Below, piece after piece: positions 20,160 through 64,000 of a DNA stretch of 64,000 bases. The stretch spans positions 372,001-436,000 of the forward strand of contig JAYWIR010000070.1 of assembly GCA_036172245.1 (NCBI GenBank). The letters are read 5' to 3'. The position numbers and the translations under genes are program-made. The stretch is from Raillietiella orientalis. Its lineage: Eukaryota. Numbering within the stretch: position 1 is the first letter of the stretch; the number at the start of each line of letters is the position of its first letter. The notes below the pieces were generated by a model, which was not told the DNA's origin, ran no database searches, and saw nothing but the letters and a program-made list of their open reading frames with translations.

Positions 20160-21507
20160 TCAGACTGCCGAGCCGACGGAAACTCAATGAATAAGAAGAA
20201 TGCAACGCTTTCCCGAGGCCTCGCAGAGAGCCTCAGAAAACACGAGCGATTGGGCTGAAGGCGAAAAAGCCTCCTACTGCCACCGTCGTGAACCGAAAGC
20301 CTCGCGTCAAGGCCTTGGCAAACGCCGCCGAATGCGGTCGTTCGCCCAACACCGGAAAATCGCGCCCACGGGCAAAGAACTCCACAACAACCGCCCTATC
20401 GCAGCCAAGGTGCCCCCGGCGCCGACTGCCGCGAGGAAACAGCCGTGACGCCTGCATACCTAGCGCGCGGACGCAGCTCCAGCCGCGGCCAACGAGGAAA
20501 CTGCTAAGGCGAGCAGAAGCGCTACAGCAGCGCCCCTAGAGGCCGCAAAGACAACGAGTGAATCCGTCTATGACGAGGACGTAGCGCCACTATCGTTCGC
20601 CAAGGCACTCGCGTACGCCTGCGCTCAGGCAGCGCTCCAAGAGGCAGCCAGGGCAACGTCGACTACACCCACGGAAGCAGCGCTATCTCAGGAAAGAGAA
20701 GGTAACTGCGATGCGAAGAAAGAAGGCTGGATGAAGGTAAGGAGAAAAAGAAAATGGAACCATCAAAGTCCTCACAGCTCCGCGTCAAGGTGAATGGTCG
20801 CTAAAAACCTGCGAAACCTTCGCAAAAAAAGGCTGTGATCTTTGCCTCCTAGTCAAAGATTGCTACTTCTACTAGCTCTACTACTCCTTGTTGTATGCTA
20901 GAGAGTCGACGGAACGTAGTCCCTCGGGGCTGCTTCTGCCGGCGGGTGGCCCTGCGGTCGACCAGGAGGAACGCGCCACTCTGGAGTTGCCCTTCACGGC
21001 GGAGGAAGTGTCTTCCTCCATAGCGGGCCTCAAGAAGCGTAAGGCGCAAAGTGAGGATGGTCTGCCTGCGGAGTTCTTCCAGTGTTTCGAGGCGGAACTC
21101 ATCCCCCTGGTGCTGAGGCTTTCTCGGCTCATGCGAGAGACGGGCAATGTTTCGCTCAGCAAGGGTGCGTCTCTTGCCGAAAGGCGGAGACATGCGCCAA
21201 TTAAGCAACTGGCGTCCAATCACCTTGGTGAATGCGGACGTCAAGTTGTTCTCCAGGCTCTGGGTCGCACGCCTAGGCAGAATCACTGGATCCGTGGTAA
21301 TTCCGTAGCAATCCTACTCTGTTCCCAGGCGGTCCATGGAGGCGAACCTGTTCTTTGCGCGCACGTGGCTCGAGCTGCAGCGTTGCGAGGCGCACGACAG
21401 CCAGGTAACCGCATCTGCGGCTGCCGAGGCTAGGCGTCGCTGCATTCGGCCTGAGGAAGCGCCGGGTGCCTTGGCGGTCGCGGTCGATCTCCGCAAGGCG
21501 TTAGATT
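20160..21507 (+). mobile_element. Element A: decayed lineage III non-LTR retrotransposon (possible ORF1 relic ~20160-20830; ORF2/RT fragment 20880-21507); outermost host of the nest
   Basis: 20880-21502 aligns to D2 ORF2 (59395-60025: YYSLLYAR..EDGLPAEFFQCF..VDLRKA). The upstream part is A/P/K-rich with an EGWMKV motif like other ORF1s; that part is lower confidence. Confidence 0.8.
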
Positions 21508-23350
21508 TTCACCCGGATTTCGCCGGGGCGTTTATTGAAACAATAAACTTTAACAAAGACGTGCAGTGGCTGGACCACTGCTCCAGCCAAGCACGAAGAA
21601 ACACAGAGCCTTCCGGGTCACCGGTTCGCAGACCGGTACGGTCCACCACGGCAGCAGGGGGAAGGGGGAAAAAACAAAAAACAAAACAAAAAAGAAAAGA
21701 AAAGTTGGGAGGGTAAGGAAAGGGATCACAGTTGCTGGTGGGGCCTTTGCATCCTTTGCAGGATGCCGGCAAGCTCCTTCTGTATTCCTGAATCCAGGTG
21801 GGGCCATCGGGACGCCCTCCTTAGGAACTGGGAGGCTGGCTGGATGGCACCCTGGTCGCGTTGTCCTCCCGTAGCCTTGCTCCAGGCGCTGACGATCCCG
21901 CGTAGGCAGCACAAAGCTGCTAACGAGGCCGCAGGCCGAAGGGCGTCGGCAACGAAGAGGGCTTTCAGAGCGTCCCTGGGGTTGCCGCAGGGGATTCCGA
22001 TGGCCGCGGCAAAGCGGAACCAAAGGGGTCGAAGGGCAACACAATCCACTAGCAGGTGGGGGAGGGACTCCATTCCCCACACCTGACACAATTGGGGTTC
22101 ACCGCTTCCCAGGTCCAGTGGTGTCGGAGGGAGTTGCAGGGGAGTCCCGAGTGCTGCAACAGGAGAGCCAACTCCTGCCATTTTAAAGGGAGGGTGGAGG
22201 TGTTCATAAGTAACGGGGCCACTTCAGACGTTCAATGGGAACGTCGAGCAGCACGACCCAGTGCACCACAACTCTGGAACAAGTGCCGACATTCGGAACT
22301 GGAGATGAAGCTCCAGCCGTTCCAATGTCAGGAGGCCGAGACCACCGTCCCGACGCAGAGCGCACAAGTCCTTTAAGTGGACTCGGGCCCTCCCGTTGCC
22401 CCAAAAAACGATACGAAGGGGGTCCTTCGTCCGCTTTTTTATCCTCTCTGTAGGGGGTCAAACAAAAGGCAGAGGTCGGAGGAGAGGAGCCGCGAACGTG
22501 TTCCAAACCGCGGCCCGTTCAAGCAGGAAAAACTTGCCGCCTCGGAACGGGCCGATCGCCGTCTCTACTTCCTGGAGGCAGCCGGACCATGCTTCCGCAG
22601 GGGAGTAGTCCCCCGACGGCACACCAAGGTACTTGAAGTACCTCACCGTGAGGATCCCCAAACGGACCCAGTCCTGCTGCCTGCCCACGCCGCACCAATT
22701 GGTATGACGGACGACTTCGCCCTGTTCACCGTAAGTACGGTTCCCCGATGCAGCAGGTCGAAGAACTCCTCGACCGTTGAAGCCGGGGTGGACATAGGGA
22801 GCAGCAGCAGAAGGTCGTCCGCGTACGCTGAAACGGCAGGCGTACCGGCACAGTCGTGCGGCAGGTGCGCAGAGTTTCCCTGTACGCTCTCAGTACGAAC
22901 TCAAAGTAGGTACTGAAGAGCAAGGGGCTCAGGCTCTCCCTGCCGTATCCCACGCCGCACCGGCACGCCGCGCACGGTCTGCCCGCTGAAAGAAACGTTG
23001 ATGAGCGCGTCGCGCCAGCAGGAGCGCAGATAGGCCACTAATGAGGCCGGAAAGCCTAAGCGTTCCAGAAGGAGATTCTGGTCGACGCAATCGAATGCTT
23101 TGCGCAAGTCGAGTGCGACCGCAAGGGCTCCCTCCCCCACTCGACCATCTGAACCTTTGCCGGCGCACGCAACGGAATTCCGGCTGCGCACTAAGCTCCT
23201 TTCATGTTGGAGCTCTAGCCAGGTGTAAGCGTGGAACAGGTTCGCCTCCATGCTTCGCCCGGGAACAGCATATGTCTGTTGCGGGCTGATGAAGATGTTT
23301 GCAACCCGTCCCAGACGCTCTGCCTAAGCCTTAGCCAGCAACATGGCGTG
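21508..23350 (-). mobile_element. Element B: lineage II, intact 3' end plus internally deleted ORF2 (RT and C-terminus)
   Basis: LDLRKAFD, YADD, KYLGVP and ESLPHLLVDC motifs. Colinear with E but roughly 0.5 kb shorter. AATAAA-hairpin terminus at 21508-21536. Confidence 0.9.
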
Positions 23351-23351
23351 C

Positions 23352-25502
23352 GGACGTGTTTTTTCCGCGATCCTCTGCGCCTGTTGTAAAGCGTTCCTTT
23401 TCGTTAGTGTTTGTGTGTGGAGCATCTGCGGTGTCCAATGGCAGAAATGCCTGAGGACACCGCAATGGAAGTCGGCAAGGGAGAGGATTGTTCCTCTTTC
23501 CAGCCCATAGAGATGAGGCAACCGCCCCCACGGAGACGAGGCAACCGCCTTCTTGAAAAAAGGGGCAACCGCATTCTTGGATCCTTCCTAGGCAATGACG
23601 AATACCTGGAGCGCCGTGACTACAGCACCATCCCCTGAAGCCATTGCCTAACAGTGTGCCTACCGGGATCAAGGGTATAAACCATCCTTGATTTATAAGG
23701 TAGGCAACCTTTTTTTGGAGAACACCGCTCGTAACCTTGAAAGAGAGTTACAGCGGCTGAATGTCGAAGAGGAAGGCCTGGAAGGTCTCTCCGTGATGAG
23801 TGGGGGCCAGCGGGTGAAGCTGACTTGCAAAGATGCAAGTCTGGCTCAGCGCCTGTTGAACACTTCCATCACGCTGGAAGGCCGAAAGGTCTTCCCTGTA
23901 ACGGAGGATCGCTCTATTGTTGCACACCTAACCTGTGTAACTCTTCTCATGACCAAAGCTGGCGTGCAGGAAGAGTTGAAAAACCATAACACGGTGCACG
24001 CGCTCTGGACCAAGCCGAACGTCTTCCAAACATACGGAAGACTGTTCAGTGGCATGGCTGCAGCTCGTGTGACCGTCCACGAAAACGGTGGGCTGCCCCA
24101 CAAACTCGACGTCGGCAACGAGGTCGTCGACGTCTGGTACGTGGGCAAGCCCAAGTACTGTGGGCAGTGTGATGCAACAGGACACCTGAAAAAACGGTGT
24201 TCTCACATCCAGTGTTTCCACTGCAAGGAGAAGGGCCACCTACGGAAAGTGTGCCCAAAGCGGAAACCTCCAGCGCCCTCTGCCTTGAAAAAAGGTAAGG
24301 GGAAACGCTTGGAGAAAACAAGCAAGCCCAAAGAAGCAAAGGAAAGGCCAAGCAAAAAGCCAGAGTCCGAATGCTCCCAGCAAACGGCGGGCGAGAAAAA
24401 TCCCGACGACGCTGGTTACAGCGAGGACTGGCGGACAGCGAAGCCGAAAAGCAAAAAAATCCGAAAAACCGAAGAACCGACAGCGGAACCCGTGACAACT
24501 CCTTTAAATAGAAGGCAACGCCACGCTTTGCTCCGCGAATGTTCGGTCGCTTTGTAGCGAGTAGAGATCCCCGAGACCTCCACCGGGGGAGATATCCCCC
24601 GCCTCGTTGACGCCGAAGCCGCGATCGCGGAAGGAGAACCCTCTGTGCAAACAGAGGGGGAGCCGAGCGACGCGGTCGCCGCAATCGAGGACGCCGCCTT
24701 CCAACAGGCGGCGGAAGAGCTCGCGGCCGAGCTCGCGGAAAGTGAGAACGGCGCGCGAAAAGCCTTGCCAAGCTCGGCCGCGGCCAGGGCACCTCCAACA
24801 GGTGACCACGAACCGGATGCCGGAAGTGCGTCCTCCTCCGCGGAGGCGCCTCCGAAGAAGACTGGACGGAAGTCCAAGAATCCAAAGATGTGCATCCCAA
24901 GAAAGAAGGAGGGGGACGCACCGGCAGCCGAAGGGGAAGCCGGTAGCGTAGGAACGGAGGGAGGGATTTTCCCACCCTGCGCTACCGAGCAGCTGGCGAC
25001 CCCCATGGAGGAGGGGGAGAAGGTAAGTCATTGCCGCCCACTTCCAAAGGTGGAACCTGCTGAGGAGATAGCCATGGAGGAGGGGGAGCAGACAGTTGAC
25101 AACCGCTCCCCCCTGCCGTCCAACGCAGCCGACGATTCGGCCCCCATGGAAGAGAGGGAGCAGGTGCGTGAAACTCGCCCCCTTCCACCGTTGCGGTCCA
25201 CTGAGCAATCGGCGCCCATGGAGGAGGGAGAACCGGTGCGCGGTGCCCCCATTCCTCCATCTGTCCCGCCCGACCAGGTGGCGGGCGCCCCATTGTCACT
25301 TTCGCAGGAATAACACCAGGGTTCGCCTGTCGCCGCCGATTACGCGTGGCCTGCTGGAACGTAAACGTGCTGCGCGACGACGGCAACAGACGGGACACGG
25401 CCGCCACCCTGCGTGACTTCGACCTGGCGCTCCTGCAGGAGATCCACGTGATCACCGCGCAGAACGCCCAGGAGATCGAGACGATCGCAGGGGGTCAACT
25501 GT
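23352..25502 (+). mobile_element. Element C: lineage I-related, intact 5' end, disrupted ORF1 (23438-25313) and start of APE
   Basis: Starts GGACGTG. Knuckles CGQCDATGHLKKRC and CFHCKEKGHLRKVC, PMEEGE repeats, then WNVN..QEIH. Interrupted at GGQL by D1. Confidence 0.92.
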
Positions 25503-27588
25503 TTATCACCCGGGTGCGCCGGAGCGTTTATTGTAAACTATCGGGGGACAGGGTTCATGGACAAAGGAGAAAACAAGAGACGAAGGGGGTGGGATCCCCG
25601 ACACGCAGGTCGGTATGCCGAAAGTCCGTAACGGGAGGGAAGGGACCACAAATACACTACTATAAAAAAATTAAATAAAAATATGGAAGGCAGGGGACAG
25701 GGGTCTTTATCGAGTCCGTTCCTTCCTTTCAAAACCGGCGATGGATGCCGGCGATCTCTCTCCTAACGCCCTGTGGAAGATGGCCCACTCGGCAGCCGAC
25801 GACATGATTGTGCTGGCTAATCCGGTGAATGACGAAGGATGGCCAGCTTCTCCAACCCTCGGTGGGCCTTGTCGATGGCGCGGGTGCAACACACGGTTGC
25901 AACGACAGCACCCAAGACAGGCCGCCTGGCGAGAAGAAGCGGCGCATGAAGTCCCTCGCGGTGTCCCCCTGGTGCAGGAGAGCTCATGCCAGCCCCCGTC
26001 AAAGTCCAAGAAGGGCACCGCAGTCTAGGAGCAGGTCAGCGAGCGTTTCCACTTTCTCGCACCGCTTACAGTTTGGGGAGACAACTCCCCCGGAAACACG
26101 GTTCGTCCGCTGGTTGGAGTGAAAACCCCAATGCACCAGCATGAAGACGTCCTGCTTTCACGAAAGGGGGTACACAGAAGCGTACAAACAGGAGGGAGGG
26201 ACCACAAGTTCTTCGGGGGGCACACTTAAGTGTTCACTCCACCGAAGGGGTCCCTTCGGAACGTGGCGAGGCGTGGCGGCGTCTGCCAGCTCGCAAGTCC
26301 TCTAGCCGCCAATAGGTCGTGTTGTTCCTGCAATGGTGCAGGCGACCTCCCATCTCGCCGGTTCGCAGCTGTCATCTCTTGCCCTGAGGGCTGACAGTAC
26401 GTCGGCGAGCAGCGTGACGGCCAGGCGGGTCCACTTCTCCTGGCTGTTGCACACTTCATCCACCGTGCAGTACGGGGAGAGTTGAGCGCAACGGAGTTCC
26501 AGGAGGGAGACATCCTGGTACTTTGCCCAGCCATGCAACGGTTCCTGCCGCCAGGCTTGAAAGTTCGTTGGGCGGCAGGAGATCCATTCCTAGGCTTCCA
26601 GGAGCCGGTAGAGCGGTTTCAAGGAAAAACCAAAGCTTCTCGTGGCGCGCTCCGCGTGCGGCCGCAGCTACAGAAGTCCATCGCTGCCTGTGCAGCGCCG
26701 CAGAAGCAGGCGCGCGGGTGCGCACCACGGGGTGGAACAAAGGTTGGCGCACAGGGCCAACATCCGAAGCTGCACCTGCAGCTCGATTCTCTCCAGCGTC
26801 AGGATGCCTAAGCCAGCATCCCGACGCGGAGCCGCCAAGTCTTTGAGGCAGATCCTGGACCTCGCAGGTCCCCACAGAGCGTTCCTCAACAGGCTGTGCG
26901 CCTGGAGCTTAGCCGATTAGAGGGTCGGGCAAACAAGAAGCAGGAGGCGCAACAGGGGGGCAACGAAGGTGTTCCATATCGTGGCCCGCACCGGCAGGAC
27001 GAACCTGCCATGGTGGAACGGGCTCAGGGAATTCGGAGCCTTCCGAAGGCAATCCGACCACACTTCCACTGGGCTGATGATCCCCAGCGGAACGCCCAGA
27101 TATTGGGTGGTCGAAGCGTTTGGGATCCCCAGGCGGATCCAGTCAGACTGCCCCTCCCACGCCGCAACAATAGGTACGCCCACGCTCTTGCTCCGGTTTA
27201 AACTCAAGCCCGCTCCCCGGCGAATCAGCTCGAAGAAATCCTCAAGAATGATTGCCGGGGTGGTGATATGTAAGAGCAAAAGGAGGTCGTCAGCATAGGC
27301 TGCCACGAACTGCGTTCCTGGACAAGAGCTCGGCAGGGTGGCCAGCGTCAGCCTGTTCGCTATCAGCACCAACTCAAAGAAGATGCTGAAAAGCAACGGG
27401 CTTAAGCTGTCGCCCTGCCTAATGCCCCGCCGCACCGGCACGCCGTACACGTGGCAGCCGCTCAAAGAGATGGAGATGAGCGCGTAAAGCCAGCAAGCGC
27501 GCAAATACGCCACGAGGTGCACCAAGAGACCAAGACGTTCCAGGAGCTCCAGGAGGAGATCCTGATTTACGCAGTCCAGCGCCTTGCG
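25503..27588 (-). mobile_element. Element D1: lineage III, 3' end and RT/C-terminal half of ORF2 (frameshifted)
   Basis: Closely similar to D2 60015-62106 including the 3'UTR; RQGDSLSP and YADD motifs. Confidence 0.93.
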
Positions 27589-27606
27589 TGCTCCAGGGTA
27601 GACGTG
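27571..27606 (+). promoter_or_regulatory. Putative Inr (GCAGTC, in target DNA) plus DPE (AGACGTG, in element H)
   Basis: A at 27573 and motif at 27600 give +1/+28 spacing. Confidence 0.55.
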
Positions 27607-28786
27607 TTTTCTCGGTGCTCCTCGTGCCAGGAAGTCTCCCCCAGTGCAAGCGTCGTGTGGTTCGGTGGTCAATCAGGCAGCGATGCCTGACGCGACCACC
27701 AGGGATGGCAAGGGGGCAGCGGCAACTCCGCCCCCAGAGGCGATGGAGAGCCAGGGGACGGCGGCAACGTCGCCCCTGGAGGCGATGGAGGTGGGGGCAT
27801 GCGCCCCCACAAAATCGGTCCCCGCTGCAGCGCGGGCGTGGAGCGCCCTTGTGTCGGCGCCATCGCCTGCAGCCGCGACGGAATTGTCGGCCTATGTAGA
27901 GGAGGGGTACAACCCCTCATTGTTCTACAAGGTAGGCAATCTCTATTCTTCAGAGAGCGCGCGCGCCTTTTCGAAGGGCATGCGCGCTGTTGATGTGAAA
28001 GAGGAGGAGCTCAGCGCTATGACCATCTGCAGCGGGGGTCAGTACGTTGAGGTCATCTGCAAGCATGCAGAGCTGGCCCAACGACTGCTCAAAACCCCTG
28101 TTGTGATGGGAACGCGCAGGCTCCTCCCCACTACGGCGGACCGCAGCATGGTGGTCCACCTGTTAGGTGTTACCGCGCGGAAGCGCAAGGAACAGGTTCG
28201 CGCCGCGTTGGAGGAATACGGAACGGTCCACGCGCAGTGGAAGAAAGTTAGTCCTTTCGAGGACTACACGGGGCTGCAACACGGCCTCACTGCTGCGCGC
28301 GTGAACGTTCGGGAGGGCTGCACTCTTCCCCACAAACTGGTGGTGGAAGGCGAAACCGTCGACCTCTGGTATGTGGGGAAGCCGAAATACTGTGGCTTCT
28401 GCAATACGTCGGGCCACCTCAAAAAGAGGTGTCCCAATGTGCAGTGCCAAGTATGCGGCACAATGGGCCACACGAGGGAGGTGTGCCCAAAAGCAGCAGT
28501 GCGGGTGGTTTCCAAGAGAAACCTTAAAAAACGCGCCCGGCTTCTGCAGAAAAGGCTGGCGGCGAAAGCTGCCGCGAAGGCTGTGCCACCCGCGCCCAAG
28601 GCCCAGGCCGCACCCGAGACCTCGGCGAACAACGCCGAACAAGTCGAGAAAACAAGCCAGGAGCCTGGGTGGCAGGTGGCTACGGCCAAAAAATCAAAGA
28701 AGGAGAGGAGGATGGAGAAAAAGCTCGCGTACCGCCAGAAAAAACAGCAGGCAAGCGAGCAAATTAAAGAATGCAGCGTTGTCGTT
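27589..28786 (+). mobile_element. Element H part 1: lineage II, intact 5' end and ORF1 N-terminal part (ATG 27683)
   Basis: AGACGTG at 27600. ORF1 is homologous to F ORF1 with two CCHC knuckles and is cut at ECSVVV by J. Confidence 0.92.
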
Positions 28787-40179: not shown

Positions 40180-40197
40180 CCTCCACGGCCAACTGGA

Positions 40198-50000: not shown

Positions 50001-50034
50001 TAAAAAGGTCCCAGTCCTGGAGATTCCGGAGCGT
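47013..50034 (-). mobile_element. Element a3: lineage I, 3' end and ORF2 downstream of APE (disrupted)
   Basis: Near-identical to a1 37157-40179 in reverse orientation. Confidence 0.94.
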
Positions 50035-50046
50035 CGAGCGGACGTG
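50011..50046 (+). promoter_or_regulatory. Putative Inr (CCAGTC, in target DNA) plus DPE (GGACGTG, in element F) core promoter
   Basis: A at 50013 and motif at 50040 give +1/+28 spacing, matching the Drosophila Inr TCAKTY / DPE RGWCGTG geometry. Function inferred. Confidence 0.6.
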
Positions 50047-52647: not shown

Positions 52648-55600
52648 TGTCCACCTGGGTACTCCCGTGGCGTTTATTGTATAAAACTCTACAAGAAAAC
52701 GTGGTACAAGGCCCCACTAACGGCCACACAACACCGGACCTGCCGGGACGCCGGGACGCAGCCCAGCGTGACGCTCTTCGCCAGTGGAGGGGGATGGGGA
52801 TCAAAACAAAATTAAAAAATGAAAATAAAGGAAAACAAAAAGAGTTTGGAGGGAGGGGAAAGAATCACGTTCCACTTAGAGGAGGGTCCAACCCTCGCAG
52901 GATGCCCTCCAGGTCCATCTTCATGCTTCCCAGATGGGGCCATCTCGCTGCTCTCCGCATGAAGCAGACCGCATACGGGATGACATCCCTCACGTTGGCA
53001 TCCACTTCTTCGTCGCGAATGTCGCTCCATGCCGCCACGATGCCCCGGATATAGCAGAGGGCTGGGAGGGCTGCGGCAGGCTGCAGGGCGTCACGCACGA
53101 AGAGGGGCCGAAGAACGTCTCTGGGCGCTCTGCTTGTTGGGAGCCCGAAGGTCGTCCCGAACCGTTCCCACAGGGGACGGAGGGCAGCACAGTCAACTAG
53201 TAGGTGGGGAAGCGATTTGTGCTCTCCACACCTTGCACACTCAGGCCTTACACTCCCCCGCATCCAGTGGAAGCGGCGCGCGTTGCAGGGTAGACCCCAG
53301 TGCAACAGTAGCAGCCCCGACTCTTGCCACTTCAGGGGGAGAAGCCTGGATCCTATCAGATTGGGGGCCACTTGAGGTCATCCGTCGGGATGCCGAGCAG
53401 CTCGCCCCATCGACGAAGTCCACGAGGAAGGGTACTCGGGGTCGTGGCATCCGCCAGTTCTCCCATGGTCCAACCGCTCATCTTCTTCTCCTTGCCTGCA
53501 ATTCGGCAGGAGACTTGCCACTTTGGCTTGCGGCTGCTTGTTAAAGCCCTTCGGAGAAAGGGCAGGGTCGAAGCTAGAGGGGTGATCTCCGCCCACGTGC
53601 TCCTGGCGGGACACTCCAGAGTAGTCCGCAGTGTGCAGCGGGCGTTGGGGCCGAATCGCAGGCGGTTCCAGTCCGGGGAAGTCTGGAGGTTCAACTTGGC
53701 CCACGTCGCAACTGATTCCTCCAGCCAGGCGAAGAAGTTGGCGGGGCCGCATACCGTCCAGCCGTTGTTTCTGACCAGGGCTTCCATGCGCCCAAGAAAA
53801 GGCCACATCTTCTCACCTTCCTGCCGGAGCACAGGAGGTACGACGCGAGTCCTTGCGTCCTGGACACACGGCTGGCGAGGATTCGGGCCGGAATGCACCA
53901 AGGGGTGCTCCATGACTTTGCTGCGATGGCGAGGGTGCGCCATCGCAGCTGTATTTCCAGGCGCTTTAGCGTCAGGAGGCCGAGACCGCCGTCCCGACGA
54001 GGAGCGCATAAATCATCCAGAGGCACACGTGGCCTCCCGCTGCCCCAGAGGGCGATGCGGAGTATGTCTTTTGTCCTCTTTTTAATGTCACGGTGGACGG
54101 GGCACACAAAAAGCAGGGAACGGAGGATGGAAGCCGCGAAGGCGTTCCACACCGCGGCCCGTTCCGGCAGAAGGAACTTGCATTCCAGGAACGGGCCGAT
54201 TGCCAACTCTACCTTCTCGAGACGACCTGACCAGGCTTCTGCGAGGCAGAAGTCCCCCAACGGGACACCCAGGTACTTCAGGTACCTGGCCGTTGGGATC
54301 CCCAAGCGGATCCAGTCAGGCCGTCCGACCCACGTCGCACCCACCGGTACGACCGACGACTTCGCCTTGTTTACCCGCAGTCCAGTCCCACGACTTAGCA
54401 GATCGAAGAAATCCTCGACTGCGGCTTCCGAGGCGGACATGGGCAGCATGAGCAGAAGATCGACGGCGTATGCTGCAACGGCAAGCGTGCCGGGGCACGA
54501 GCTGGGCAGGGCAGCCAAAGTCACCCTGTACGCTCTCAGCACCAACTCAAAGTAGGTGCTGAAGAGCAGGGGACTGAGGCTATCGCCCTGCCGTATGCCC
54601 CGCCGCACCTGCACGCCGAACACCTGTTGGCTGGAAAAGACGATGTTGACAATGGCATTGCGCCAGCATGAGCGCAGGTAGGAGAGAACGGAGCTTGGGA
54701 AGCCCATGCGACCCTGGAGCTCCAACAGTAGCTCCAGGTCTACGCAGTCGAACGCCTTGTGGAGATCGACCGCGATCGCTAGGGCTCCCTTCCCAGCCCG
54801 GGTATCTATTCCCAGCCCACCTGGCGGTTCCAAAGTGGGGTTGCCAATCTTTCCCCCTGTGTCGTTCAGGCAGCGCTGCACATGGAACCATGTGCTCTCG
54901 AAGAACAGGTTGGCATCCATACTTCGCCCGGGAACAGCGTACGTCTGCTCCGGGCTAATTATGGAGTCTGCCACCTGTCCTAGACGCAAAGCCCACAGTC
55001 CAGCGATCAGCTTGGCGTCCGTATTCACGATTGTGATCGGACGCCAATTGCCCAAGAATCTCAGGTCTCCTCCCTTCGGGAGGAGCCTCACACGGGCTGA
55101 CCGAAACGAGGCGGGAACGTCGCCTTCGTCTCGGATCAGCCCGGTCAACTGAAGCACCAGGGGTGCCAGCTCTGCCGCGAAACATTGAAAGAATTCCGCA
55201 GGCAGGCCGTCTTACCCTGGCGCCTTTCGCCTCTTGAGCCTTTTAAAACCGGCGAGAATTTCACCGGTAGAAAAAGGCTCGTCGAGGCTGATCTTCTCCT
55301 CTTCCCCTATTGCCGGGGCTCCATCCGAAAGCAGGAGCCGCGAGGCGTTCCGCTCTGGGGGTGCCCTAGCGTAGAAAGAGGAGTAATAACGTCGCACGAG
55401 GTGCCTGATCGCGGGTGGTGCGGATCGCTCCCGGCCCTGGTCGTCCAGCAAGCTGGCCGACCCGGATTGCCAGGCTTGGCGTTCGGCCCCGGCTCGATAT
55501 TCCGCGAGGCGACGGACATTCGGGGTCCTCTCGTACCGGCGGGCCTGTAGATAAGCCCGATGGTTCCGAGCCCCCTCCCCGAATCCGGGGGGCAGGCGGT

Positions 55601-56282
55601 GCAGGGGAAACTCCTCGCAGAACTCGCGGAACGAGGCCTTGAAGAGGTCCCAGTCTTGGAGACTGCGGAGGGTGACACCTCTTAGGATTTCGCGAAGGTG
55701 TTCTTTCGCACCTGTGAGCTGCGTCCAGTCCCCAGGCAGCCGCCACGCCCTGGACGGGGGTCCTTTGTCGCGCGGGCAAACCTCGGCGATGATCCTGGAA
55801 TGGTTCGACAGCGTCGACGCAACTTTTCCCCGTTTGCAAACCCGCGAGCACAGGTCGACATCCAGGAAGAAGTGGTCGATGCTGCGGTCCATTCCCTCCG
55901 CGTCTGCCAACAAGTTGCGCGTGCGCATGGCAGCGCAAAACTCGTTGGCCGTGCGTTCTTGTGCTTCGGGCTCACCTGACAGCAGACGGAGATTGAAGTC
56001 TCCAGCTATCAGGTGTGCCTTCCGCACATTCGTGTCGGCCAGCCAATCGCGCTTCAAGGTTTCCAGCAGCCTGGTACGGTCGCTGTATCCCCCTTTTCCG
56101 CTCGGGGCGTACACGTTCGTGACGATCAATTCGATCGAGTCGGACCAGCTGAGAATCAGCTGACCGACCCTACCGTCGTTATCGAAGCGTACGCCCTTCA
56201 CGGCAGCGTCGATGGCCGGCTTGACGAAGAACGCGACCCAGCAGGTGTTGCGGGCGCCGCATCGCCAATACAGTCGACCCCC
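52648..56282 (-). mobile_element. Element G, 3' part: lineage I subfamily, ORF2 from GGRLYW to the 3' end
   Basis: Homologous to a1 ORF2 and 3'UTR; frameshifted. Confidence 0.93.
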
Positions 56283-56372
56283 TCCATTGTTCGGACGTGC
56301 ATTCTTGCGCTCCGTCTTTGGTGCTTCTTTGCGGTTGTTCCTTTTGGGTGCGGTGGGATTTTTCATTTGGAA

Positions 56373-58310
56373 ATGAAGCCAGTGCCCGCAGAAATGGAGG
56401 TGGAGGAATCCCCCTGCGCCGCAGGACCTTCTTCGGGAGGAGCGGAAGCCTCCACCGATCGTCCCTCGCCTCCAGCGAGAAGTTTTGCCGCCGTTGCTAA
56501 GGCAGCGGCGGCTCACGGAGCCCCACCCGACGAGGCAGAGCTGCGGGCGTACGCCGCGAGCGGCTACAACCCCCCTCTGGCCTACAAGGTCAGTGCCGCG
56601 TACCGGGATGGGACGGGCAACCAGCTCTGGAGCGAGCTAGAACGCGTAGGGGTCCGAGAGGACGATCTCCTGGCAATTATGCCAGTGAGCGCGGTAGGCC
56701 ATTGGGAGGTGCACTGCAAGGATGCAGCCCTCGTCCAGCGCCTACTGCGAACCCCCCTGAACATCAGGGGTAAGGAGGTCGTCCCCTCGGCCCTGGATCA
56801 ATCGTTCGTGGTCCAGCTCTCGGGAATTAGGCCGAGAATAACGGACCGCGACATCATTGTTGCACTCGAGGCGTTCGCCACAGTGCACGCGATGTGGAGG
56901 CGCGCGAACCCGATCGATAAAGTCCCGCGCCTCTCCTGCGGACTTGCGACGGCGCGCGTCACCATGGACGACCGGAGGCTCATGCCTTCGCAGATCCTCC
57001 TCGGTGACGTCGTCGTCTATCTCCGGTTTGCCGGGCAAACCCCCGCTTGCGGCAACTGCGGGAAGGAGGGCCACCGTCCGCGGAAGTGCCCAACACGCAG
57101 TTGCCGATACTGTAAGCTGCTCGGCCACTCGATTAACGAGTGCGCCGAGCTGAAACGAAAGAGGAGGGCGAGAAACCCCCCCGCAACATCGCCGTCCGCG
57201 CCGACTCCATCCGCCCCGTCGTCGGGGAAGAAATCAGGCGCGAACGAGCATTCTCAGCGGAGAAGTGAAAAGTCCGCTTGCGCGGGCGATTCTTGGAGCA
57301 ATGCTCCACAAAAACCCGCGCGAAAGGACAAGGAGCTCCTCCAGGCTGCTTCAGTAAAGCCCCGAGCGACCCAGCCCGCCGATAACATCGGGCAGGCTGC
57401 AAAAATAGCACCGCCGCTTCCGTCCGCTCTCGCTCCGGAGCGAAATAGCGGTGGCACGCCCGGGAAGACCACCGGAGCGTCGAAAAAGGGGTCGCGCGCC
57501 CCTTTGCCCGCGACAGGCAAGCCGGCCACGGCGGGCCGAACGCCAGCAAAGGCTGAAAAGCCTCGCGCGACACCCGAGAATCCCGCCACTGTGCCCGCAC
57601 CTCCCGGTAAGGAGGTGCAGAAGGCAGACGTGGCGAAGGAGACACTGGCCTCAGTCGCCGTATCCGAGGCCTTGGAAAGGATGCGAAGGACCCTGGAAGC
57701 CCTCGCGCCCAACCGGGGCAAACAGGAAGGCGGCGAGGATGGCTGGACCTTCGTCGGGGGAAAGAAGGAGCGCAAACCGCGCGATCCTTCCCACTTCCCG
57801 ATCCAAAAGGTAGGCGGGGTGAAGAGGCAACCCCGCGCGCCCAGAAAGGCGCAAGGACAAGCCTCTGCTGCCGCCGCGCGCGCCGCCGCAAACACCCGCG
57901 GCGAGAGGGGAGCTGCCGAAGCCGTGACCCCGAAAGGGGGATCGGCGACGAAGGCACCCTCGAAGAGTGCTGGACCAGCTCCGGGCTGCCAGCAAACAAA
58001 GAGGCAGGCGAAACGCCCGCCGCCGCGCGCGCGCAATTCGGACTCCGAGGTGGAGTCCGAGGGCAGCGCTAAGGCTCGCCAAGCCCCGGTCAAGGCCAGG
58101 GCTGCGCGCAAGCCAAAACTTGCCAGGCAAGAGCCTGATGCCGGGAACGGTTCCCGATGCTCCTCGGAGCCCGAGGCAATGGTCCTCGACTCGACCAAGC
58201 CGGCCGCGAGCGGCGCGGCGGGGACAGGAAGCGCTTGCGCTACCTCATCCGCCGTGCTCCCGGCTGATGCCTCGCCGGACGGGGCGAGGAACGCACCTCC
58301 ATGTCCGTAG
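56373..58310 (+). CDS. D2 ORF1 (645 aa) gag-like protein
   Basis: Open from ATG 56373; knuckles CGNCGKEGHRPRKC and CRYCKLLGHSINEC; long basic low-complexity tail. Confidence 0.9.
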   Translation: MKPVPAEMEVEESPCAAGPSSGGAEASTDRPSPPARSFAAVAKAAAAHGAPPDEAELRAYAASGYNPPLAYKVSAAYRDGTGNQLWSELERVGVREDDLLAIMPVSAVGHWEVHCKDAALVQRLLRTPLNIRGKEVVPSALDQSFVVQLSGIRPRITDRDIIVALEAFATVHAMWRRANPIDKVPRLSCGLATARVTMDDRRLMPSQILLGDVVVYLRFAGQTPACGNCGKEGHRPRKCPTRSCRYCKLLGHSINECAELKRKRRARNPPATSPSAPTPSAPSSGKKSGANEHSQRRSEKSACAGDSWSNAPQKPARKDKELLQAASVKPRATQPADNIGQAAKIAPPLPSALAPERNSGGTPGKTTGASKKGSRAPLPATGKPATAGRTPAKAEKPRATPENPATVPAPPGKEVQKADVAKETLASVAVSEALERMRRTLEALAPNRGKQEGGEDGWTFVGGKKERKPRDPSHFPIQKVGGVKRQPRAPRKAQGQASAAAARAAANTRGERGAAEAVTPKGGSATKAPSKSAGPAPGCQQTKRQAKRPPPRARNSDSEVESEGSAKARQAPVKARAARKPKLARQEPDAGNGSRCSSEPEAMVLDSTKPAASGAAGTGSACATSSAVLPADASPDGARNAPPCP

Positions 58311-58315
58311 CAGCA

Positions 58316-61300
58316 ATGCGCGGTCTCGCTTCTTCCCGTCGCGTCCGAGTGGCCTGTTGGAACGTCAACGGGCTGCAGGACAACGAGAAGAGGCGATTGG
58401 TTGCCAACGTCTTGCGCGACTTCGATCTGGCCCTGCTGCAGGAGATTCACGCACTCTCCGAGCAGCAAGCGGCCGATCTGCAAGTTCGCGCAGGCGGGAC
58501 GCTCCATTGGAGGTCAGGCTCCCAGAATACCTGCGGAGTCGCATTCCTTGTCCGGGGCAGGGTGGCGGGAGCGGTGCGGAGCGTTTGTTTCGACGAGGAA
58601 GGTCGTGTGGGCCAACTTGTTCTCAAGTGGTCCGAATCGATCAACCTTGTCGTCACGAACGTGTACGCGCCGAGCGGCTCCGCGCGTCACACCGAGAAAC
58701 TGGAGTTTTTCGAGAGACTGCGCGACCGCTGGCTCAGCAACTCCGGCCCCGACGTGGCTCACCTCGTAGCCGGGGACTTCAACGTCCACGCGCTATCGGA
58801 GGAGTCTCACCGTCGCCGGGAGAAACGGCTGGTGAACGAGGTGTGCGCGTCGGTGCACGCCTCGAATTTGCTGGCCGACGATCCCGGAATGCGTGCTTTG
58901 CCGGACCATGTGTTCCTCGACGATCACCTGCATTGCCGGGTGGGTCGAAGAGGTCCCGTGCCGTCCGAGCTTTCCGACCACTACAGGCTGGAGTTTGAGC
59001 TACTCCCGTCTGGCAAGGGCCCACCGACGAACGTCTGGAGGTTGCCGGCCGACTGGTTGAGAAATCCGGTGGCTGCGGAGCACCTCCGCCAGCATCTTCG
59101 GACCTTTGCCGTTCGAGAGCTCGTGGACTGGGACGATCTGAAAAGATCGGTCCGCGAGTTCTGCAGCCGGTTCCCCTTGCGCCTGCTTCACCGTGGCTTC
59201 GAAGAAGGCGTGGCCAACAGCAGAGAGTTTCTGCAGGCCCGCCAATTCTTCCGATGCCCGGACGTCCGGTACCTTGCGGAGTACAAGGCCAAGGCCGAGC
59301 GCCAGGTCTAGCAGTCAGGAGTAGCTTGTCTGCTCGACGACCAGGGCCTGGAGTGCTCGGGCGCGGCCGAAGTTCGCCGCCTCCTAAAGCGCTATTACTC
59401 CTTGTTGTACGCTAGGAAGCCGACGGAACGCAGTCTCTCGGAGCTGCTTCTGCCGGCGGATTCCCCGGCGGTCGACGAGGAGGAACGCGCCACTCTTGAC
59501 TTGCCCTTCACGGCGGAAGAAGTGTCTTCCGCCATAGCGGGCCTCAAGAAGCGCAAGGCGCCAGGTGAGGATGGTCTGCCTGCGGAGTTCTTCCAGTGCT
59601 TCGCGGCGGAACTCATCCCTTTGGTACTGAGGCTTTCTGCGCTGATGCGAGAGACGGGCAATGTCCCGGCCTCGTTTCGCTCAGCAAGGGTGCGTCTGTT
59701 GCCGAAAGGCGGAGACATGCGCCATTGAAGCAACTGGCGTCCCATCACCTTGGTGAATGCGGACGTCAAGTTGTTCTCCAGGCTGTGGGTCGCGCGCCTG
59801 GGCAGGATCGCTGGATCCGTGGTAAGTCCGGAGCAGTCTTACGCTGTTCCCGGGCGGTCCATGGAGGCGAACCTGTTCTTCGCGCGCACGTGGCTCGAAC
59901 TGCAACGCTGCGTGGCGCACGACAGCCAGGCAACCGCGTCTGCGGCTGCCGAGGCTAGGCGTAGCTGCATTCGGCCTGGGGAAGCGCCGGGTGCCTTGGC
60001 GGTCGCGGTCGATCTCCGCAAGGCGTTCGATTGCGTAAATCAGGATCTCCTGCTGGAGCTCCTGGAACGCCTCGGTCTCCCGGTGCACCTCGTGGCGTAT
60101 TTGCGCGCTTGCTGGCGCCACGCGCTCATTTCCATCTCTTTTAGCGGCTGCCACGTGTACGGCGTGCCGGTGCGGCGGGACATCAGGCAGGGCGACAGCT
60201 TAAGCCCGTTGCTCTTCAGCATCTTCTTTGAGTTGGTGCTGAGGGCGTACAGGCTGACGCTGGCCAACCTGCCGAGCTCTTGTCCAGGAACGCCGTCCGT
60301 GGCGGCCTATGCTGACGACCTGCTCCTCCTCTTACCCATGACCACCCCGGCATCCAGTCTCGAGGAGTTCTTCGAGCTGATTCGCCGGGGAGCGGGCATG
60401 AGCGTAAACCGGAGCAAGAGCGTGGTCGTACCTATTGGTGCGGCGTGGGAGGGGCAGTCCGACTGGATCCGCCTGGGGATCCCGACCGCTTCCTCCGTGC
60501 AATATCTGGGCGCTTCGCTGGGGAACATCAGCCCAATGGAAGTGTGGTCGGACTGCCTTCGGAAGGCTTCGAATGCCCTGAGCCCGTTCCACCATGGCAG
60601 GTTCGTCCTGCCGGAGCGGGCCACGATATGGAACACATTCGTTGCCCCTCTCTTGCGCCCCCAGCTTTTTGTTTGCCCGCCCCCCTACTCGGCCAAGCTC
60701 CAGGCGCACAGCCTGTTAAGGAACGCTCTTTGGGGACCTGCGAGGTCCAGGATCCGCCTCAAAGACTTGGCGGCTCCGCGTCGGGATGCTGGCTTAGGCA
60801 TCCTGACGCTGGAGAGAATCGAGCTGCAGGTGCAGCTTCGGATGTTGGCCCTGTGCGCCAACCTTTGGTCCACTCCGTGGTGCGCTCCCGCGCGCCTGCT
60901 TCTGCGGCGCTGCACAGGCAGCGATGGACTTCTGTCGCTGCGGCCGCACACGGAGCGCGCCACGAGAAGCTTCGGTTCCCCCTTGAAACCGCTGTATCGG
61001 CTCCTGGAAGCCCAGGGATGGATCTCCTGCCGCCCAACGAACTTTCAAGCCTGGCGGCAGGAACCGTTGCATGGCTGGGCAAAGCACCAGGATGTTTCCC
61101 TCCTGGAACTCCGTTGCGCTCACCTCTCCCCGTATTGCACGGTGGATGAGGTGTGCAACAGCCAGGAGAAGTGGACCCGCCTGGCCGTCACCCCCCTCGA
61201 AGACGCACTGTCAGCCCTCAGGGCAAGAGATGACAGTTGCGAACCGGCGAGATGGGAGGTCGCCTGCACCATCGCAGGAACAACGCGACCTATTGGCGGC

Positions 61301-61878
61301 TGGAAGACTTGCGAGCTGGCGGACGCCGCCACGCCTCGCCACGTTCCGAAGGGACTCCTTCGGTGGAGCGAACACTTAAGTGTGCCCCCCGAAGAACTTG
61401 TGGTCCCTCCCTCTTGTCTGAACACTTCTGTGTTCCCCCTTTCGTGGAAGCAGGATGTGATTATGCTGGTGCATTGGGGTTTTCACTCCAACCAGCGCAC
61501 GAACCTTGTTTCCGGGGGAGTCGTCTCCCCAAACTGTAAGCGGTGCGGGGAAGTGGAAACGCTCTCGCACCTGCTCCTGGACTGTGGTGCCCTTCTAGGA
61601 CTCTGGCGGAGGCTGGCCTCAGCTCTCCTGCACCAGGGGGACACCGCGAGGGAGTTGATGCGCCGCTTCTTCACGCCAGGCGGCCTGTCATTGGGTGCTG
61701 TCGTTGCAACCGTGTGTTGCACCCGCGCCATCGCAAGGCCCACCGAGAGTTGGAGAAGCTGGCCATCCTTCGTCAGCCCACCGGATTAGCCAGCGCAAAC
61801 ATGTCGTCGGCTGCCCAGTGGGCCCATCTGCCACAGGGCGTAAGGAGAGAGATCGCCGGCATCCATCGCCGGTTTTGA
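58316..61878 (+). pseudogene. D2 ORF2: APE-RT-CCHC with stops at 59311 and 59728 and a late frameshift
   Basis: WNVNGL, QEIH, GDFN, SDH, DLRKAFD, YADD, CKRCGEVETLSHLLLDC. Confidence 0.92.
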
Positions 61879-62106
61879 AAGGAAGGAACGGATTTACCAA
61901 AGACCCCTGTCCCCTGCCCTCCAGATTTTTCTTTTATTTTTTTATATAGTAGTGTGTTTGTGGTCCCTTCCCTCCCGTTCCGGACTTTCGGCATACCGAC
62001 CTGCGTGTCGGGGATCCCACCCCCTTCGTCTCTTGTTTTCCCCTTTGTCCGGGAACCCTGTTCCCGGATAGTTTATAATAAACGCCCCGGCGCACCCGGG
62101 TGACAA

Positions 62107-64000
62107 ACAGTCGACCCCCCGCGATCGCCTCGATCTCCTGGACGTCTGCCGAGGTGATCACGTGGATCTCCTGCAGCAGGGCCAGGTCGAAGTCACGCAG
62201 GGTGTCGGCCGTATCTCGTCTGTTGCCGTCGTCGCGCAGCCCGTTGACGTTCCAACTGGCCACGCGGATTCGACGGCGACAGGCGAGCCCAGGTGTTATT
62301 CCTGGGAAATCGGCTGTGCGGCGTCCGCCATCTGTTGGGGCGGGACGCTAGGTGGAGGAGGAGGGACAGGTGCCTCTAGCACCTGGTCACCCTATTCCAT
62401 CGGTGACGGCGCGTCGGGCGGGTCACCCTCCGGTGGGGTCGCGCCTACCTGCTGGCCCTTCTCCATAGGGGTGGGCTCCTCAGGGTCCGCGACGACAGGG
62501 GGGATTTCGACCCCCTGCTCACCCTCCTTCATGGGGGTGTCGTGCTCGACGGCTTCCGCGCGTGGGAGCTCCCCCTCCGGGATTCCCACGCTGCCGGCGA
62601 CTTCCTGCTTCTCCTCCTCGCTCGTGGAGGGGAGGCGCTTCCTCTGCTTTTGGGAGTTGCGTCCCGTCTTCCGGGTGGGTGCCTCCGAGGAGGAGGATGC
62701 ACTTCCGGCCCCCAGTTCTAACTCACCTGCGGGGGCCTTCTTTACTGGAGCCGGGCTTCGCACGGCCTTGCGCGAGGGGTTCTCACGCTCAGCCAGCGTG
62801 GCTGCGAGCTCCTCCGCCGCCTTCGCGAAGGCGGCGTCCTCGCCGGCGGCGAGCGCGTCGCGCGTCTTACCCTCTGTGCAAACAGAGGGTTCGACGTCGC
62901 GAACCTCGGGCGCGGCGGAAAAGGCGAGGGGAGGCTCGTCGCTCCGGGTGGCAGCCTCGGGAACGCTGATGCGCTCCAGTGCTACCGAGCACTCGCGGAG
63001 AGTTTGAGATCGCGGACCAGGTTTTTTCGCCTTCGCGACCGTGTTTTTCTCCGCCTTTTCTTGTGAACCCTTTTTGGGTTCTTTTGTGGCCTTTACCAGC
63101 TTCCATCCTTCTTCCTCGCCCGCGTCTTTCGCTGTTTTTTCCGCCGCCGCCTGGGTTGGAGGAGGAGGAGAAGGCTGCTGGGGCCGGCCATTCTCGCGAT
63201 GAGGTCTTTCGACCTTATTCATCTTTTTCGCCTGTGCCTTTTTAACAGCAGGTGGCACAGGGGTGGGGCGTTTAGGGCACACATGACGGACGTGTCCCTT
63301 TTCCCCGCACAAGTGGCACTCGATATTCGGGCACCGCATGCGCACATGCCGTACTGCATCGCAGTAGCCACAATAGCGGGGTTTTCCCACGTACCAGAGG
63401 TCGACGGGCTTCTTCCCGACCTCCAGTTTGTGGGGTAACCCAGCACCCTCGTTCACAGTGACACGCGCTGCTGCCTGGCCACCAAAGAGGCTGTTATAGC
63501 TATCAAAAATGGTTGGCTTAGGCCACAGCGCGTGCACATCTCCGTATTTCCTCTATTCCGCGTTCACCGCAGAGCGCGTCATGCGGTTCGTGATCCCCGT
63601 TAGATGGACCACTACGGAGCGGTCCATGCTAACGGATAGGATCTTTCGGCCAGCCACATTCAGCGGGGTGTTGATGAGGCGCTGCGCTAGGGCTACGTCT
63701 TTGCAGACGACCTCCACGCGTTGCCCCCCGCTGAGTACGGCGAGGCCGTCAAGATCCTCCTCACGCACGGGGAATTCCTGTAGTGCCTTGCTAAAGGCAC
63801 GCGCGGTGCGACCGTCGAACAGGTTTCCCACCTTATAAACCAGGGATGGTTTATATCCGGAGGCCCTGTAGGCCGCTTGCTCAGCCAAGGTTTCCGCGCT
63901 CGGCGCGGCGACCATGGCGCTCCAGCTCCTCGTCTTGGGCGACGAGGGCGATTCCGGGGCGGGTGCCCCTGATTCTGTAGGTCGTGGGAGGGGGCTAGCC
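62107..64000 (-). mobile_element. Element G, 5' part: ORF1 (ends 62296, disrupted) and APE start; 5' end just beyond the window
   Basis: Homologous to a1/a2 ORF1; two CCHC knuckles; TAACA ORF junction. Confidence 0.93.

Follow-up and report, generated by a model that had tools for sequence, protein, structure and literature searches.

What determines where a LINE lands when the surrounding DNA consists of other LINEs? The question is raised by a single stretch of 64,000 nt, called the window here. Positions 20874 to 64000 of it form a GC-rich island of ~43 kb (GC ~60%, vs 34–52% in the flank) composed solely of L1-like LINEs with ORF1, an APE endonuclease and an RT. The evidence comes from this window and from one external contig of public run X1; a search of public collections for further copies of the island elements found none.

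Composition of the island

The island contains three mutually related lineages (I, II and III), all with a 5' terminus of GGACGTG and a 3' terminus of AATAAA plus a hairpin with a 5-bp stem. Five insertion sites are numbered: site 1 in the APE codons GGRL or GGQL, site 2 in the RT motif DLRKAFD, site 3 at LRNLQDW, site 4 in ORF1 and site 5 after PxGFG. The elements are as follows.

IIIx, 20874..21507, + strand: lineage III fragment at the left edge of the island, 5'-truncated (D2 coordinates 3106–3750, 89.9% identical to D2), terminating in a site 2 copy; no LINE homology was found to its left
B, 21508..23342, - strand: lineage II 3' part (E coordinates 4176 to 1842, with ~520 bp absent relative to E); its 3' hairpin end adjoins IIIx
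K, 23343..25502, + strand: divergent lineage I 5' part with GGACGTG at 23352, ORF1 and the APE start, interrupted at site 1 (GGQL)
D1, 25503..27588, - strand: lineage III 3' part (D2 coordinates 5824 to 3735) with seven in-frame stops; 3' end in site 1 of K, site 2 copy at its other end
H, piece 1, 27589..28786, + strand: lineage II 5' end (variable bases, then GACGTG) and N-terminal part of ORF1 (F coordinates 1–1146)
G, 28787..34329, - strand: complete lineage III-like element, ~74% identical to D2, antisense in ORF1 of H at codons ECSVVV, with an imperfect target-site duplication of 9–11 bp
H, piece 2, 34330..34516, + strand: F coordinates 1147–1335, terminating at site 4
a1, 34517..40179, + strand: complete lineage I element with ORF1 (34674–36371), APE (36320–37174) and RT (37304–39967); sites 1 and 3 empty
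a2, 40180..42830, + strand: lineage I 5' part in tandem behind a1 (a1 coordinates 1–2655, 94.7% identical), terminating in a site 3 copy
E, 42831..47012, - strand: lineage II from site 4 to the 3' end, which adjoins a2
a3, 47008..50034, - strand: lineage I 3' part (a1 coordinates 5673 to 2641, 95.0% identical); 3' end at site 4 of E, site 3 copy at its other end
F, 50035..52647, + strand: lineage II 5' part (coordinates 1–2613), site 4 empty, interrupted one base past codons PEGFG (site 5)
C, 3' part, 52648..56282, - strand: lineage I subfamily (a1 coordinates 5665 to 2032, 80% identical to a1); 3' end in site 5 of F
D2, 56283..62106, + strand: complete lineage III element, antisense in site 1 of C, with a perfect 13-bp target-site duplication on its flanks
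C, 5' part, 62107..64000, - strand: a1 coordinates 2044 to 170, extending beyond the end of the window

By both their APE and their RT, the elements are LINEs of the L1 superfamily. The APE matches Pfam Exo_endo_phos (E 5.6e-14 in a1, 2.1e-17 in D2), and its nearest solved chains are those of the L1 endonuclease (E 1e-7). The RT matches RVT_1 (E 4e-22 and 4e-20); its nearest solved relative is human L1 ORF2p (E 4e-42), with R2 proteins far weaker (E 1e-13 to 1e-15), and its best named matches are unclassified RT proteins from fish, frog and plants at 24–28% identity. ORF1 of a1 reaches E 0.00099 against zf-CCHC at 19.5 bits, where the cut-off is 20.8 bits, and the translations show two CX2CX4HX4C motifs; the domain search gave no ORF1 family match for D2, F or H. 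There is no poly(A) tail at the 3' ends, where AATAAA and the conserved hairpin are followed by 2–5 more bases and no A run.

All 14 junctions coincide with exact element ends, and a full 5' terminus (GGACGTG or GACGTG) is present at seven of the eight visible 5' ends, IIIx alone being truncated. Leaving aside the outermost element, 12 of 12 are nested within another LINE, in the directions I into II, II into I, II into III, III into I and III-like into II, with no case of an element nested in its own lineage. The inserts are antisense for III in I, II in III and II in I, and sense for I in II at site 4. The evidence supports nesting of three related LINE lineages in one another's coding sequence, in both directions, and in part their site specificity. 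The preliminary description had proposed a reciprocal LINE network. The nesting across lineages in both directions, the exact termini and the independent hits on APE GGRL uphold it; the double use of sites 2 and 3, on which it also drew, is doubtful.

Reuse of insertion sites

At site 1, K terminates in GGGGGTCAACTGT at 25490–25502, adjoining the 3' end of D1, and in C the sequence GGGGGTCGACTGT flanks D2 on both sides (56270–56282 and 62107–62119) as the perfect 13-bp duplication. Neither a1 (36548–36560) nor a2 (42206–42218) has an insert at this site, and the relationship of the four hosts is (K,(C,(a1,a2))). D1 and D2 had been said to occupy two clearly different lineage I hosts at GG(R/Q)L, and K and C are indeed only 60% alike in ORF1. 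Next to the junction, the hosts are alike at 183/213 positions (85.9%), whereas the inserts D1 and D2 are alike at 1915/2069 (92.6%). With hosts more diverged than inserts, D1 and D2 are independent insertions into site 1 of two diverged elements.

Chance is excluded as the cause of the shared junction positions, since two matches to one base and strand of a 5.7-kb element are expected in ~1 in 11,000 cases per pair by our own arithmetic. Repeated junctions could also stem from single insertions copied later, host included, through segmental duplication or gene conversion, and site preference would then be unneeded. The alignment of K plus D1 with C plus D2 does extend 250 bp into the host at 85–88% identity, but those 250 bp are the conserved APE start that is present in all lineage I copies (C–a1 90%, K–a1 82%), and K is the outlier everywhere. 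The preliminary description had named equal divergence of host and insert as the mark of duplication; at site 1, the hosts differ by 14.1% at the junction and by 40% in ORF1, the inserts by 7.4% (Fisher p = 0.002 for the junction comparison). A further junction in run X1, described below for site 5, has different host sequence. We regard copying with the host as very improbable.

Site 4 is occupied at the H/a1 junction (34516/34517), the a1/a2 junction (~40180) and the a3/E junction (47007–47012), and it is empty in F near 51369–51375. The private changes of a1 and a2 number 26 and 42 (p = 0.07), which weakly suggests that the tandem a1 and a2 are separate insertions at this site. Site 5 was absent from the earlier list. 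Here, C is inserted in F, and in one contig of run X1, a LINE 3' hairpin plus GCAA is joined to antisense LPPGFG at exactly the base where C joins F. The letters of this contig were looked for in the window and are absent from it; on this one contig, the position of site 5 is reused at a locus outside the window.

Paired half-junctions at sites 2 and 3

It had also been claimed that separate copies hit each of four sites. The coordinates and sequences given for those junctions match to the base at all four, and separate hits are found at site 1 and, weakly, in the a1/a2 tandem at site 4; sites 2 and 3 depart from the claim in having a 3' half and a 5' half in opposite orientation. At site 2, IIIx terminates in CGCAAGGCGTTAGATT at 21492–21507, adjoining the 3' end of B, and D1 begins with CGCAAGGCGCTGGACT at 27588–27573, adjoining the 5' end of H. 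These two copies overlap by 16 bp with 3/16 mismatches, and the site is empty in D2 (60017–60032). At site 3, a2 carries ACGCTCCGGAATCTCC at 42815–42830, adjoining the 3' end of E, and a3 carries the same 16 bases at 50034–50019, adjoining the 5' end of F; the two copies are identical, and the site is empty in a1. At each of these sites, one insertion may account for both junctions, as its opposite ends.

The pieces on either side are complementary halves. In lineage I, a2 covers a1 coordinates 1–2655 and a3 covers 2641–5673; in lineage II, H covers F coordinates 1–1335 and E begins at 1341; in lineage III, IIIx covers D2 coordinates 3106–3750 and D1 covers 3735–5824. Branch lengths were tested in two half-pairs by counting private changes polarised with an outgroup. 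These number 42 in a2 v 26 in a1 of 1887 sites and 80 in a3 v 50 in a1 of 3019 (ratios 1.62 and 1.60), and 14 in IIIx v 7 in D2 of 424 and 83 in D1 v 40 in D2 of 2060 (ratios 2.0 and 2.1). The branch lengths are equal within a2/a3 and within IIIx/D1 (Fisher p = 1.0 in both comparisons). Identity to F runs on from H into E without a break at the site 4 boundary: 50 and 52 of 60 before it, 54 and 51 of 60 after it. In the APE region, a1 and C are 84% identical and D2 and G 75%, and both pairs have different targets; E and F, at only 72%, are further apart in the endonuclease than any other pair within a lineage, which fits with different targets for the element HE (H plus E) and F. The last 190 bases shared by E and F are 93–97% alike, with exact runs of 69, 49 and 31 bp, and could have served as a substrate for recombination.

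On balance, we favor a nest in which sites 2 and 3 each received one insertion, whose ends were later parted by inversions involving lineage II copies in inverted orientation. For each subfamily, the target would be one precise site within a coding motif of another lineage; the most likely mechanism is target-primed reverse transcription from an endonuclease nick, and the target duplications measure 13–16 bp. B would have been first, followed by K into the RT of B and by D (IIIx plus D1, one element) into APE GGQL of K; D would be 5'-truncated, with target DNA lost at the left edge. HE would then have entered the RT of D at DLRKAFD, and G, a1 and a2a3 (a2 plus a3, one element) would have entered ORF1 of HE. 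F would have followed into a2a3 at LRNLQDW, C into F past PEGFG, and D2 into APE GGRL of C. Afterwards, recombination between inverted lineage II elements a few kb apart (B/HE and F/HE) would have caused two inversions, parting both ends of the site 2 insertion and both ends of the site 3 insertion. Independent reuse would then hold for site 1, site 4 (as a tandem) and site 5, with sites 2 and 3 used once each.

Several observations weigh against the inversions, which are a reconstruction. Beyond the 190-bp tract, the recombining pairs are only 60–90% alike, a poor substrate for homologous recombination, and D must lack the other half of its target at the left edge. Insertion bursts could also yield equal branch lengths. 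Each junction is also legitimate for an insertion, so that an open nest suffices without any rearrangement. The site 2 copies differ at 3/16 positions, yet H has no stop or frameshift over 1257 coding bases; together, these fit slightly better with two separate lineage III copies than with one duplication produced by the arrival of H.

That open nest is the reading of the preliminary description: 11 deep, from IIIx through B, K, D1, H, a2, E, a3, F and C to D2, made by site-specific insertions only, with sites 2, 3 and 4 each hit in two host copies and the missing halves lying to the right of the window. It accounts for the 14 exact junctions and the differing site 2 copies beside an intact H ORF1, keeps the orientation rules throughout and requires zero rearrangements; the 16-bp overlaps agree with the 13-bp duplication of D2. 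Substitution ages fall in the needed order (~4% for IIIx and D1, ~2.4% for a2 and a3, ~1.8% for D2), and deep LINE nests exist, as in the Zepp clusters described in parts of PMC8226300 and PMC3446292. However, ten elements would all be left open at the window edge, and a2 and H, which show no disruptions over 2.5 kb and 1.3 kb respectively, would predate E, a3, F and C (0.8–1.6 disruptions per kb). The branch lengths are equal in both half-pairs tested, and E and F would share a target at 72% APE identity, whereas the more similar pairs a1–C and D2–G use different ones. We consider the open nest rather unlikely.

It is improbable that the nest is a proper one whose segments between inverted lineage II repeats were misoriented by the assembler, the inversions being absent from the genome or present in both orientations. 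Both putative inverted segments are bordered by same-lineage inverted repeats, and among the 8 of 621 contig pieces listed, none spans 42830/42831 and one 300-base contig halts exactly at 42831. With 8 of 621 listed, a missing bridging contig means little, and repeats that are 60–93% alike are resolvable by long reads. There is a caution here for such nests: because inverted same-family copies may recombine, half-junctions without flanks are not countable as separate insertions.

Relation to other site-specific and nesting LINEs

Known safe landing sites of site-specific LINEs are host multicopy genes, microsatellites or DNA transposons. In the Tx1 clade of APE-plus-RT LINEs, as portions of PMC4494074 describe it, the endonuclease is taken to choose a fixed sequence in a repeated target, other transposons included: Tx1 in the DNA transposon Tx1D, Tx1-9_AMi ~300 bp into Harbinger, Keno in U2, and Kibi and Koshi in microsatellites. 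The island is like the Tx1 clade in its exact junctions, 13–16-bp duplications and fixed orientation. It differs in that each element's target is a coding motif of another autonomous LINE within the same superfamily, in that the relation between lineages is two-way, and in having at least seven subfamilies with seven different targets.

Zepp and ZeppL of Chlorella, Coccomyxa and Chlamydomonas are described in sections of PMC3446292 and PMC8226300 as L1-type LINEs that insert into existing copies and form GC-rich nested clusters (61% in Zepp vs 53% for the genome), Zepp being one self-nesting family of mostly 5'-truncated 3' ends. On those accounts, nesting in existing LINE copies, clustering and high GC are shared with the island; seven of eight full-length 5' ends, no nesting in the own lineage, and exact and partly recurrent positions set the island apart. 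Celine, a poplar centromeric LINE described in part of PMC11288735, builds up within a small niche, where it is nested both with itself and with other retrotransposons; the target duplication is unique to each copy, so the targeting is regional rather than sequence-specific. As far as that account goes, niche accumulation and nesting are common to Celine and the island, and a sequence-specific target is not. By behaviour and description rather than by phylogeny, the island can be regarded as a new form of Tx1-like and Zepp-like behaviour.

R1 and R2 have two ideas in common with the island, namely tandem copies at one site and reliance on a conserved target. The target of R1 and R2 is a host gene maintained by host selection, whereas a target in the island could be maintained only by selection acting on a rival element. 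In these rDNA LINEs, a sequence-specific endonuclease cleaves both strands of a conserved multicopy target, according to PMC1919474.

Tentatively, the island might be a closed ecosystem formed by seven or more L1-like subfamilies, the endonuclease of each having been redirected to a conserved coding motif in a rival lineage, never its own. Insertion would disable a competitor and supply targets at once, and mutual parasitism would enlarge LINE islands at a distance from host genes. The motifs concerned are APE GGRL, RT DLRKAFD, RT DVKLIAK, the linker motifs LRNLQDW and PxGFG, and two ORF1 sites. If this is true, autonomous LINE lineages that land in each other's coding sequence, both ways, represent an arrangement different from the known ones; the target would be conserved through selection on the rival parasite and not on the host, and every insertion would be competition and niche construction together. 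The island would also offer a natural series of close APE endonucleases with different 13–16-bp targets, which could help explain how endonucleases of the L1 type come to be sequence-specific. The APE module is unusually diverged between E and F, at 60–72% identity inside it vs 85–93% in its flanks, which under mutual parasitism would be the mark of a recent target switch.

Composition and termini of the island

At about 20.9 kb the GC content changes from 34–52% on the left to 57–64%, which is sustained to the window end. Both strands of this island (20874–64000) are packed with long open frames. These encode an Exo_endo_phos endonuclease (APE; Pfam E 5.6e-14 and 2.1e-17) and an RVT_1 reverse transcriptase (RT; E 4e-22 and 4e-20) with a weak zf-RVT tail, and ORF1 has two CCHC-like knuckles (zf-CCHC E 0.00099, under the Pfam cut-off). 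The nearest solved protein to the RT is human L1 ORF2p (E 4e-42), with R2 proteins at E 1e-13 to 1e-15; the nearest to APE is the L1 endonuclease (E 1e-7). By self-comparison and mapping on reference copies, the island resolves into 15 pieces of three lineages, with 66–70% DNA identity across lineages in the RT regions:

Lineage I: a1 (complete), a2, a3, C and the divergent K
Lineage II: B, H, E and F
Lineage III: D2 (complete), D1, IIIx and G (complete; 74%-related)

The lineages have their ends in common. The 5' end consists of 5–18 variable bases and then GGACGTG; the 3' end is AATAAACG with a conserved 5-bp stem and 2–5 further bases, without poly(A). The stem is kept in 8 of 8 ends, with no compensatory changes. 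All 14 island junctions fall exactly at an element terminus. Eight 5' ends are visible, 7 of them full length. A perfect 13-bp target duplication flanks D2, and an imperfect one of 9–11 bp flanks G. The junctions are real, and so is the nesting of one lineage in another.

A few features stand apart. The sole 5'-truncated element, IIIx at 20874, bounds the island on the left, next to non-LINE DNA; a search left of 20874 found no LINE homology. IIIx could be an off-target founder insertion or one that deleted the other half of its target. At 22268–22293, B is without about 520 bp present in E (E coordinates 2903–3424). The tandem-repeat search found only a 42-bp unit, repeated 1.9 times within the ORF1 of H (27711–27790), and the Rfam search found no family. 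The open frames of the left flank matched no Pfam family; among them is a Lys/Ser-rich frame of 269 aa (9572–10381) in AT-richer DNA, with no relatives among longer proteins.

Independent use of target sites

Five of the insertion sites, all in the coding sequence of the elements, are numbered here:

Site 1: APE codons GGRL/GGQL of lineage I
Site 2: RT motif DLRKAFD of lineage III
Site 3: LRNLQDW of lineage I
Site 4: ORF1 of lineage II
Site 5: lineage II, after PxGFG

The preliminary description had named sites 1 to 4, each as used by separate copies. The junction sequences match its coordinates to the base. Separate use holds at site 1 and is weakly favored at site 4; at sites 2 and 3, where only half-junctions are seen, reuse is not established. 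Its broader claim, LINEs inserted site-specifically in the coding sequence of other lineages, stands as to nesting, with specificity demonstrated at one site and supported at two more.

At site 1, identity between the hosts K and C is 60% in ORF1 (479/798 and 467/770); beside the junction, in the conserved start of APE, they match at 183/213 positions. The inserts D1 and D2 match at 1915/2069 positions, which differs from the host identity beside the junction (Fisher p = 0.002). D1 and D2 inserted independently of each other, at one and the same base and strand. The rise in K–C identity near the junction is not a sign of co-duplication, since similarity is higher there among all copies of lineage I (C–a1 90%, K–a1 82%) and K is the outlier throughout. 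A 3' transduction of host flank by D was rejected, as K keeps its collinearity with lineage I across this region.

At site 4, H contains a1 and a2 as a tandem pair; CCTCC and 13 bases (34522–34534 and 40185–40197) come before each of them, and a3 meets E at the same site. Each 13-base stretch matches the host continuation in E/F at 7 of 13 positions, and the two match each other at 9 of 13 (by eye). They may be a copy of the target carried in the RNA rather than a fresh duplication. The private changes are unequal (26 in a1 versus 42 in a2, p = 0.07), giving a weak preference for two insertions over a tandem duplication.

At site 5, C, which has 80% identity to a1, interrupts F in antisense orientation one base past the codons PEGFG. 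One public sequencing run, which contains 0.10 of the sampled words, has a contig in which a LINE 3' hairpin plus GCAA is joined to the antisense of ...NRLPPGFG plus one base. The position matches that of C in F, but the host is another one, and the letters of the contig do not occur in the window. The run may come from the source organism, so the junction counts as another locus and not as another genome. Two other joints of the run (42218>42837 and 40162>46476) were left out of the count, as they may correspond to the K|D1 or C|D2 junctions already present in the window. The contigs of the run are short, about 300 bases, and the comparison covered 15 of its 25 joints, 6 of 305 loose ends and 8 of 621 pieces. 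Two more insertions in the window are antisense: K in the RT of B, and G in the ORF1 of H.

The history of sites 2 and 3

At each of sites 2 and 3, the 5' half of the host abuts the 3' end of a lineage II element; a few kb off and inverted, the 3' half of the host abuts the 5' end of a lineage II element, and the two host halves overlap by 16 bp. On balance, we lean towards one insertion per site followed by two inversions. IIIx and D1, H and E, and a2 and a3 would then each be a single element, and the inversions would have come about by recombination between lineage II copies lying inverted a few kb apart (B with H/E, F with H/E). When the two inversions are undone, a fully proper nest results. 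That this same nest was merely assembled in the wrong orientation seems quite improbable. The alternative, in line with the preliminary description, is that four hosts each received a separate insertion within a nest that is 11 deep and still open. The other halves would then lie beyond the window, among them an a-type 5' part ending ...ACGCTCCGGAATCTCC. We regard this as possible but doubtful. In its favor, it needs no rearrangement, and the putative recombining sequence is for the most part just 60–90% alike; the site 2 copies also differ at 3 of 16 bases, yet the ORF1 of H is intact.

The halves IIIx/D1, H/E and a2/a3 are exactly complementary, which the open nest explains as well. The branch lengths of the halves speak for inversion over the open nest. 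Private changes number 42 in a2 versus 26 in a1 and 80 in a3 versus 50 in a1; they number 14 in IIIx versus 7 in D2 and 83 in D1 versus 40 in D2. The halves are thus equal in both comparisons (Fisher p = 1.0 for each). In the APE region, E and F are just 72% alike, and yet the open nest requires that they share a target; a1–C (84%) and D2–G (75%) are pairs with different targets. Reading from H into E, identity to F is continuous. Under four separate insertions, a2 and H would predate E, a3, F and C, and the disruption counts point the other way, to inversion (none in 3.8 kb of a2 and H; 0.8–1.6 per kb in the others), although stop and frameshift counts are too noisy for ordering insertions. 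The preliminary count of two uses at every site is probably inflated by the two inversions.

E (45737–47012) and F (51375–52647) form a mosaic. They are 82–87% alike in the ORF1 C-terminus, 60–72% in the APE domain (with one 100-base bin at 81%) and 93–97% in the final 190 bases that they share, where exact matches extend for 69, 49 and 31 bp. The endonuclease is thus the most diverged module, and a substrate for recombination is present. The pattern suggests either that the endonuclease module was exchanged or is evolving fast, or that gene conversion left a tract ending at the C insertion.

Three other arrangements were rejected. E and F are not halves of one element, as they overlap at 76% identity. 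A read-through RNA of an a-type plus a lineage II element, copied as one cDNA, was set aside by reasoning alone, because the polarity of the overlap precludes annealing. Simple inversions with breakpoints at tandem joints of lineage II would make two exact-terminus breakpoints, with a 16-bp duplication each, coincidences. Separately, the last base of the site 3 sequence in a1 (37172–37174) is T where a2 and a3 have C; it makes a TAG stop, ends the APE frame of a1, and changes the target of the lineage II elements.

Specificity, possible mechanism and relatives

By either history, no element lies inside its own lineage. With the inversions undone, there are seven subfamilies and seven sites; copies at least 92% alike share a site, and those at most 84% alike do not. 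In other lineages, the homologous but unoccupied sequence differs from each site by 3–4 bases, which is enough for discrimination.

The elements have APE and RT domains, exact termini, duplications of 13–16 bp, a fixed orientation per subfamily and one independent reuse of a site. We propose that the endonuclease of a subfamily would nick a specific sequence in a coding motif of a rival lineage, that the hairpin-bearing 3' end of the RNA would be copied from the nick, and that a second nick 13–16 bp off would yield the duplication. More speculatively, the variable bases at the 5' ends of a-type copies may have been copied from an earlier target and brought along.

Relatives are few. In a collection of 5.8 billion proteins, the sole close one is 619 aa long, encoded on a 2.9-kb contig and 67% identical, the rest being 20–30% identical. 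It is about equidistant from the three lineages (60–67%) and is a fourth lineage. The 3' hairpin pattern had no match in metagenome_contigs or viral_contigs; its only match in genome_contigs (positions 1–1664 of a locus on a Caulobacteraceae MAG contig) is a terminator-like hairpin behind a bacterial PEP carboxykinase gene and therefore a chance match. From 151 candidates, an RT-profile scan of metagenome_contigs gave a single locus, which at 28% identity was too distant to be of use.

The full-text literature gave no account of several autonomous LINE lineages targeting one another's coding sequence at fixed sites, a weak absence, since most subscription journals and the Repbase reports lie outside its coverage. 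Tx1-clade LINEs are described as using fixed target sequences, including DNA transposons (PMC4494074), whereas the targets here are coding motifs of rival LINEs. Zepp is described as nesting in existing Zepp copies and forming GC-rich clusters (PMC8226300, PMC3446292), whereas no element here lies in its own lineage, and Celine as nesting regionally without sequence specificity (PMC11288735).
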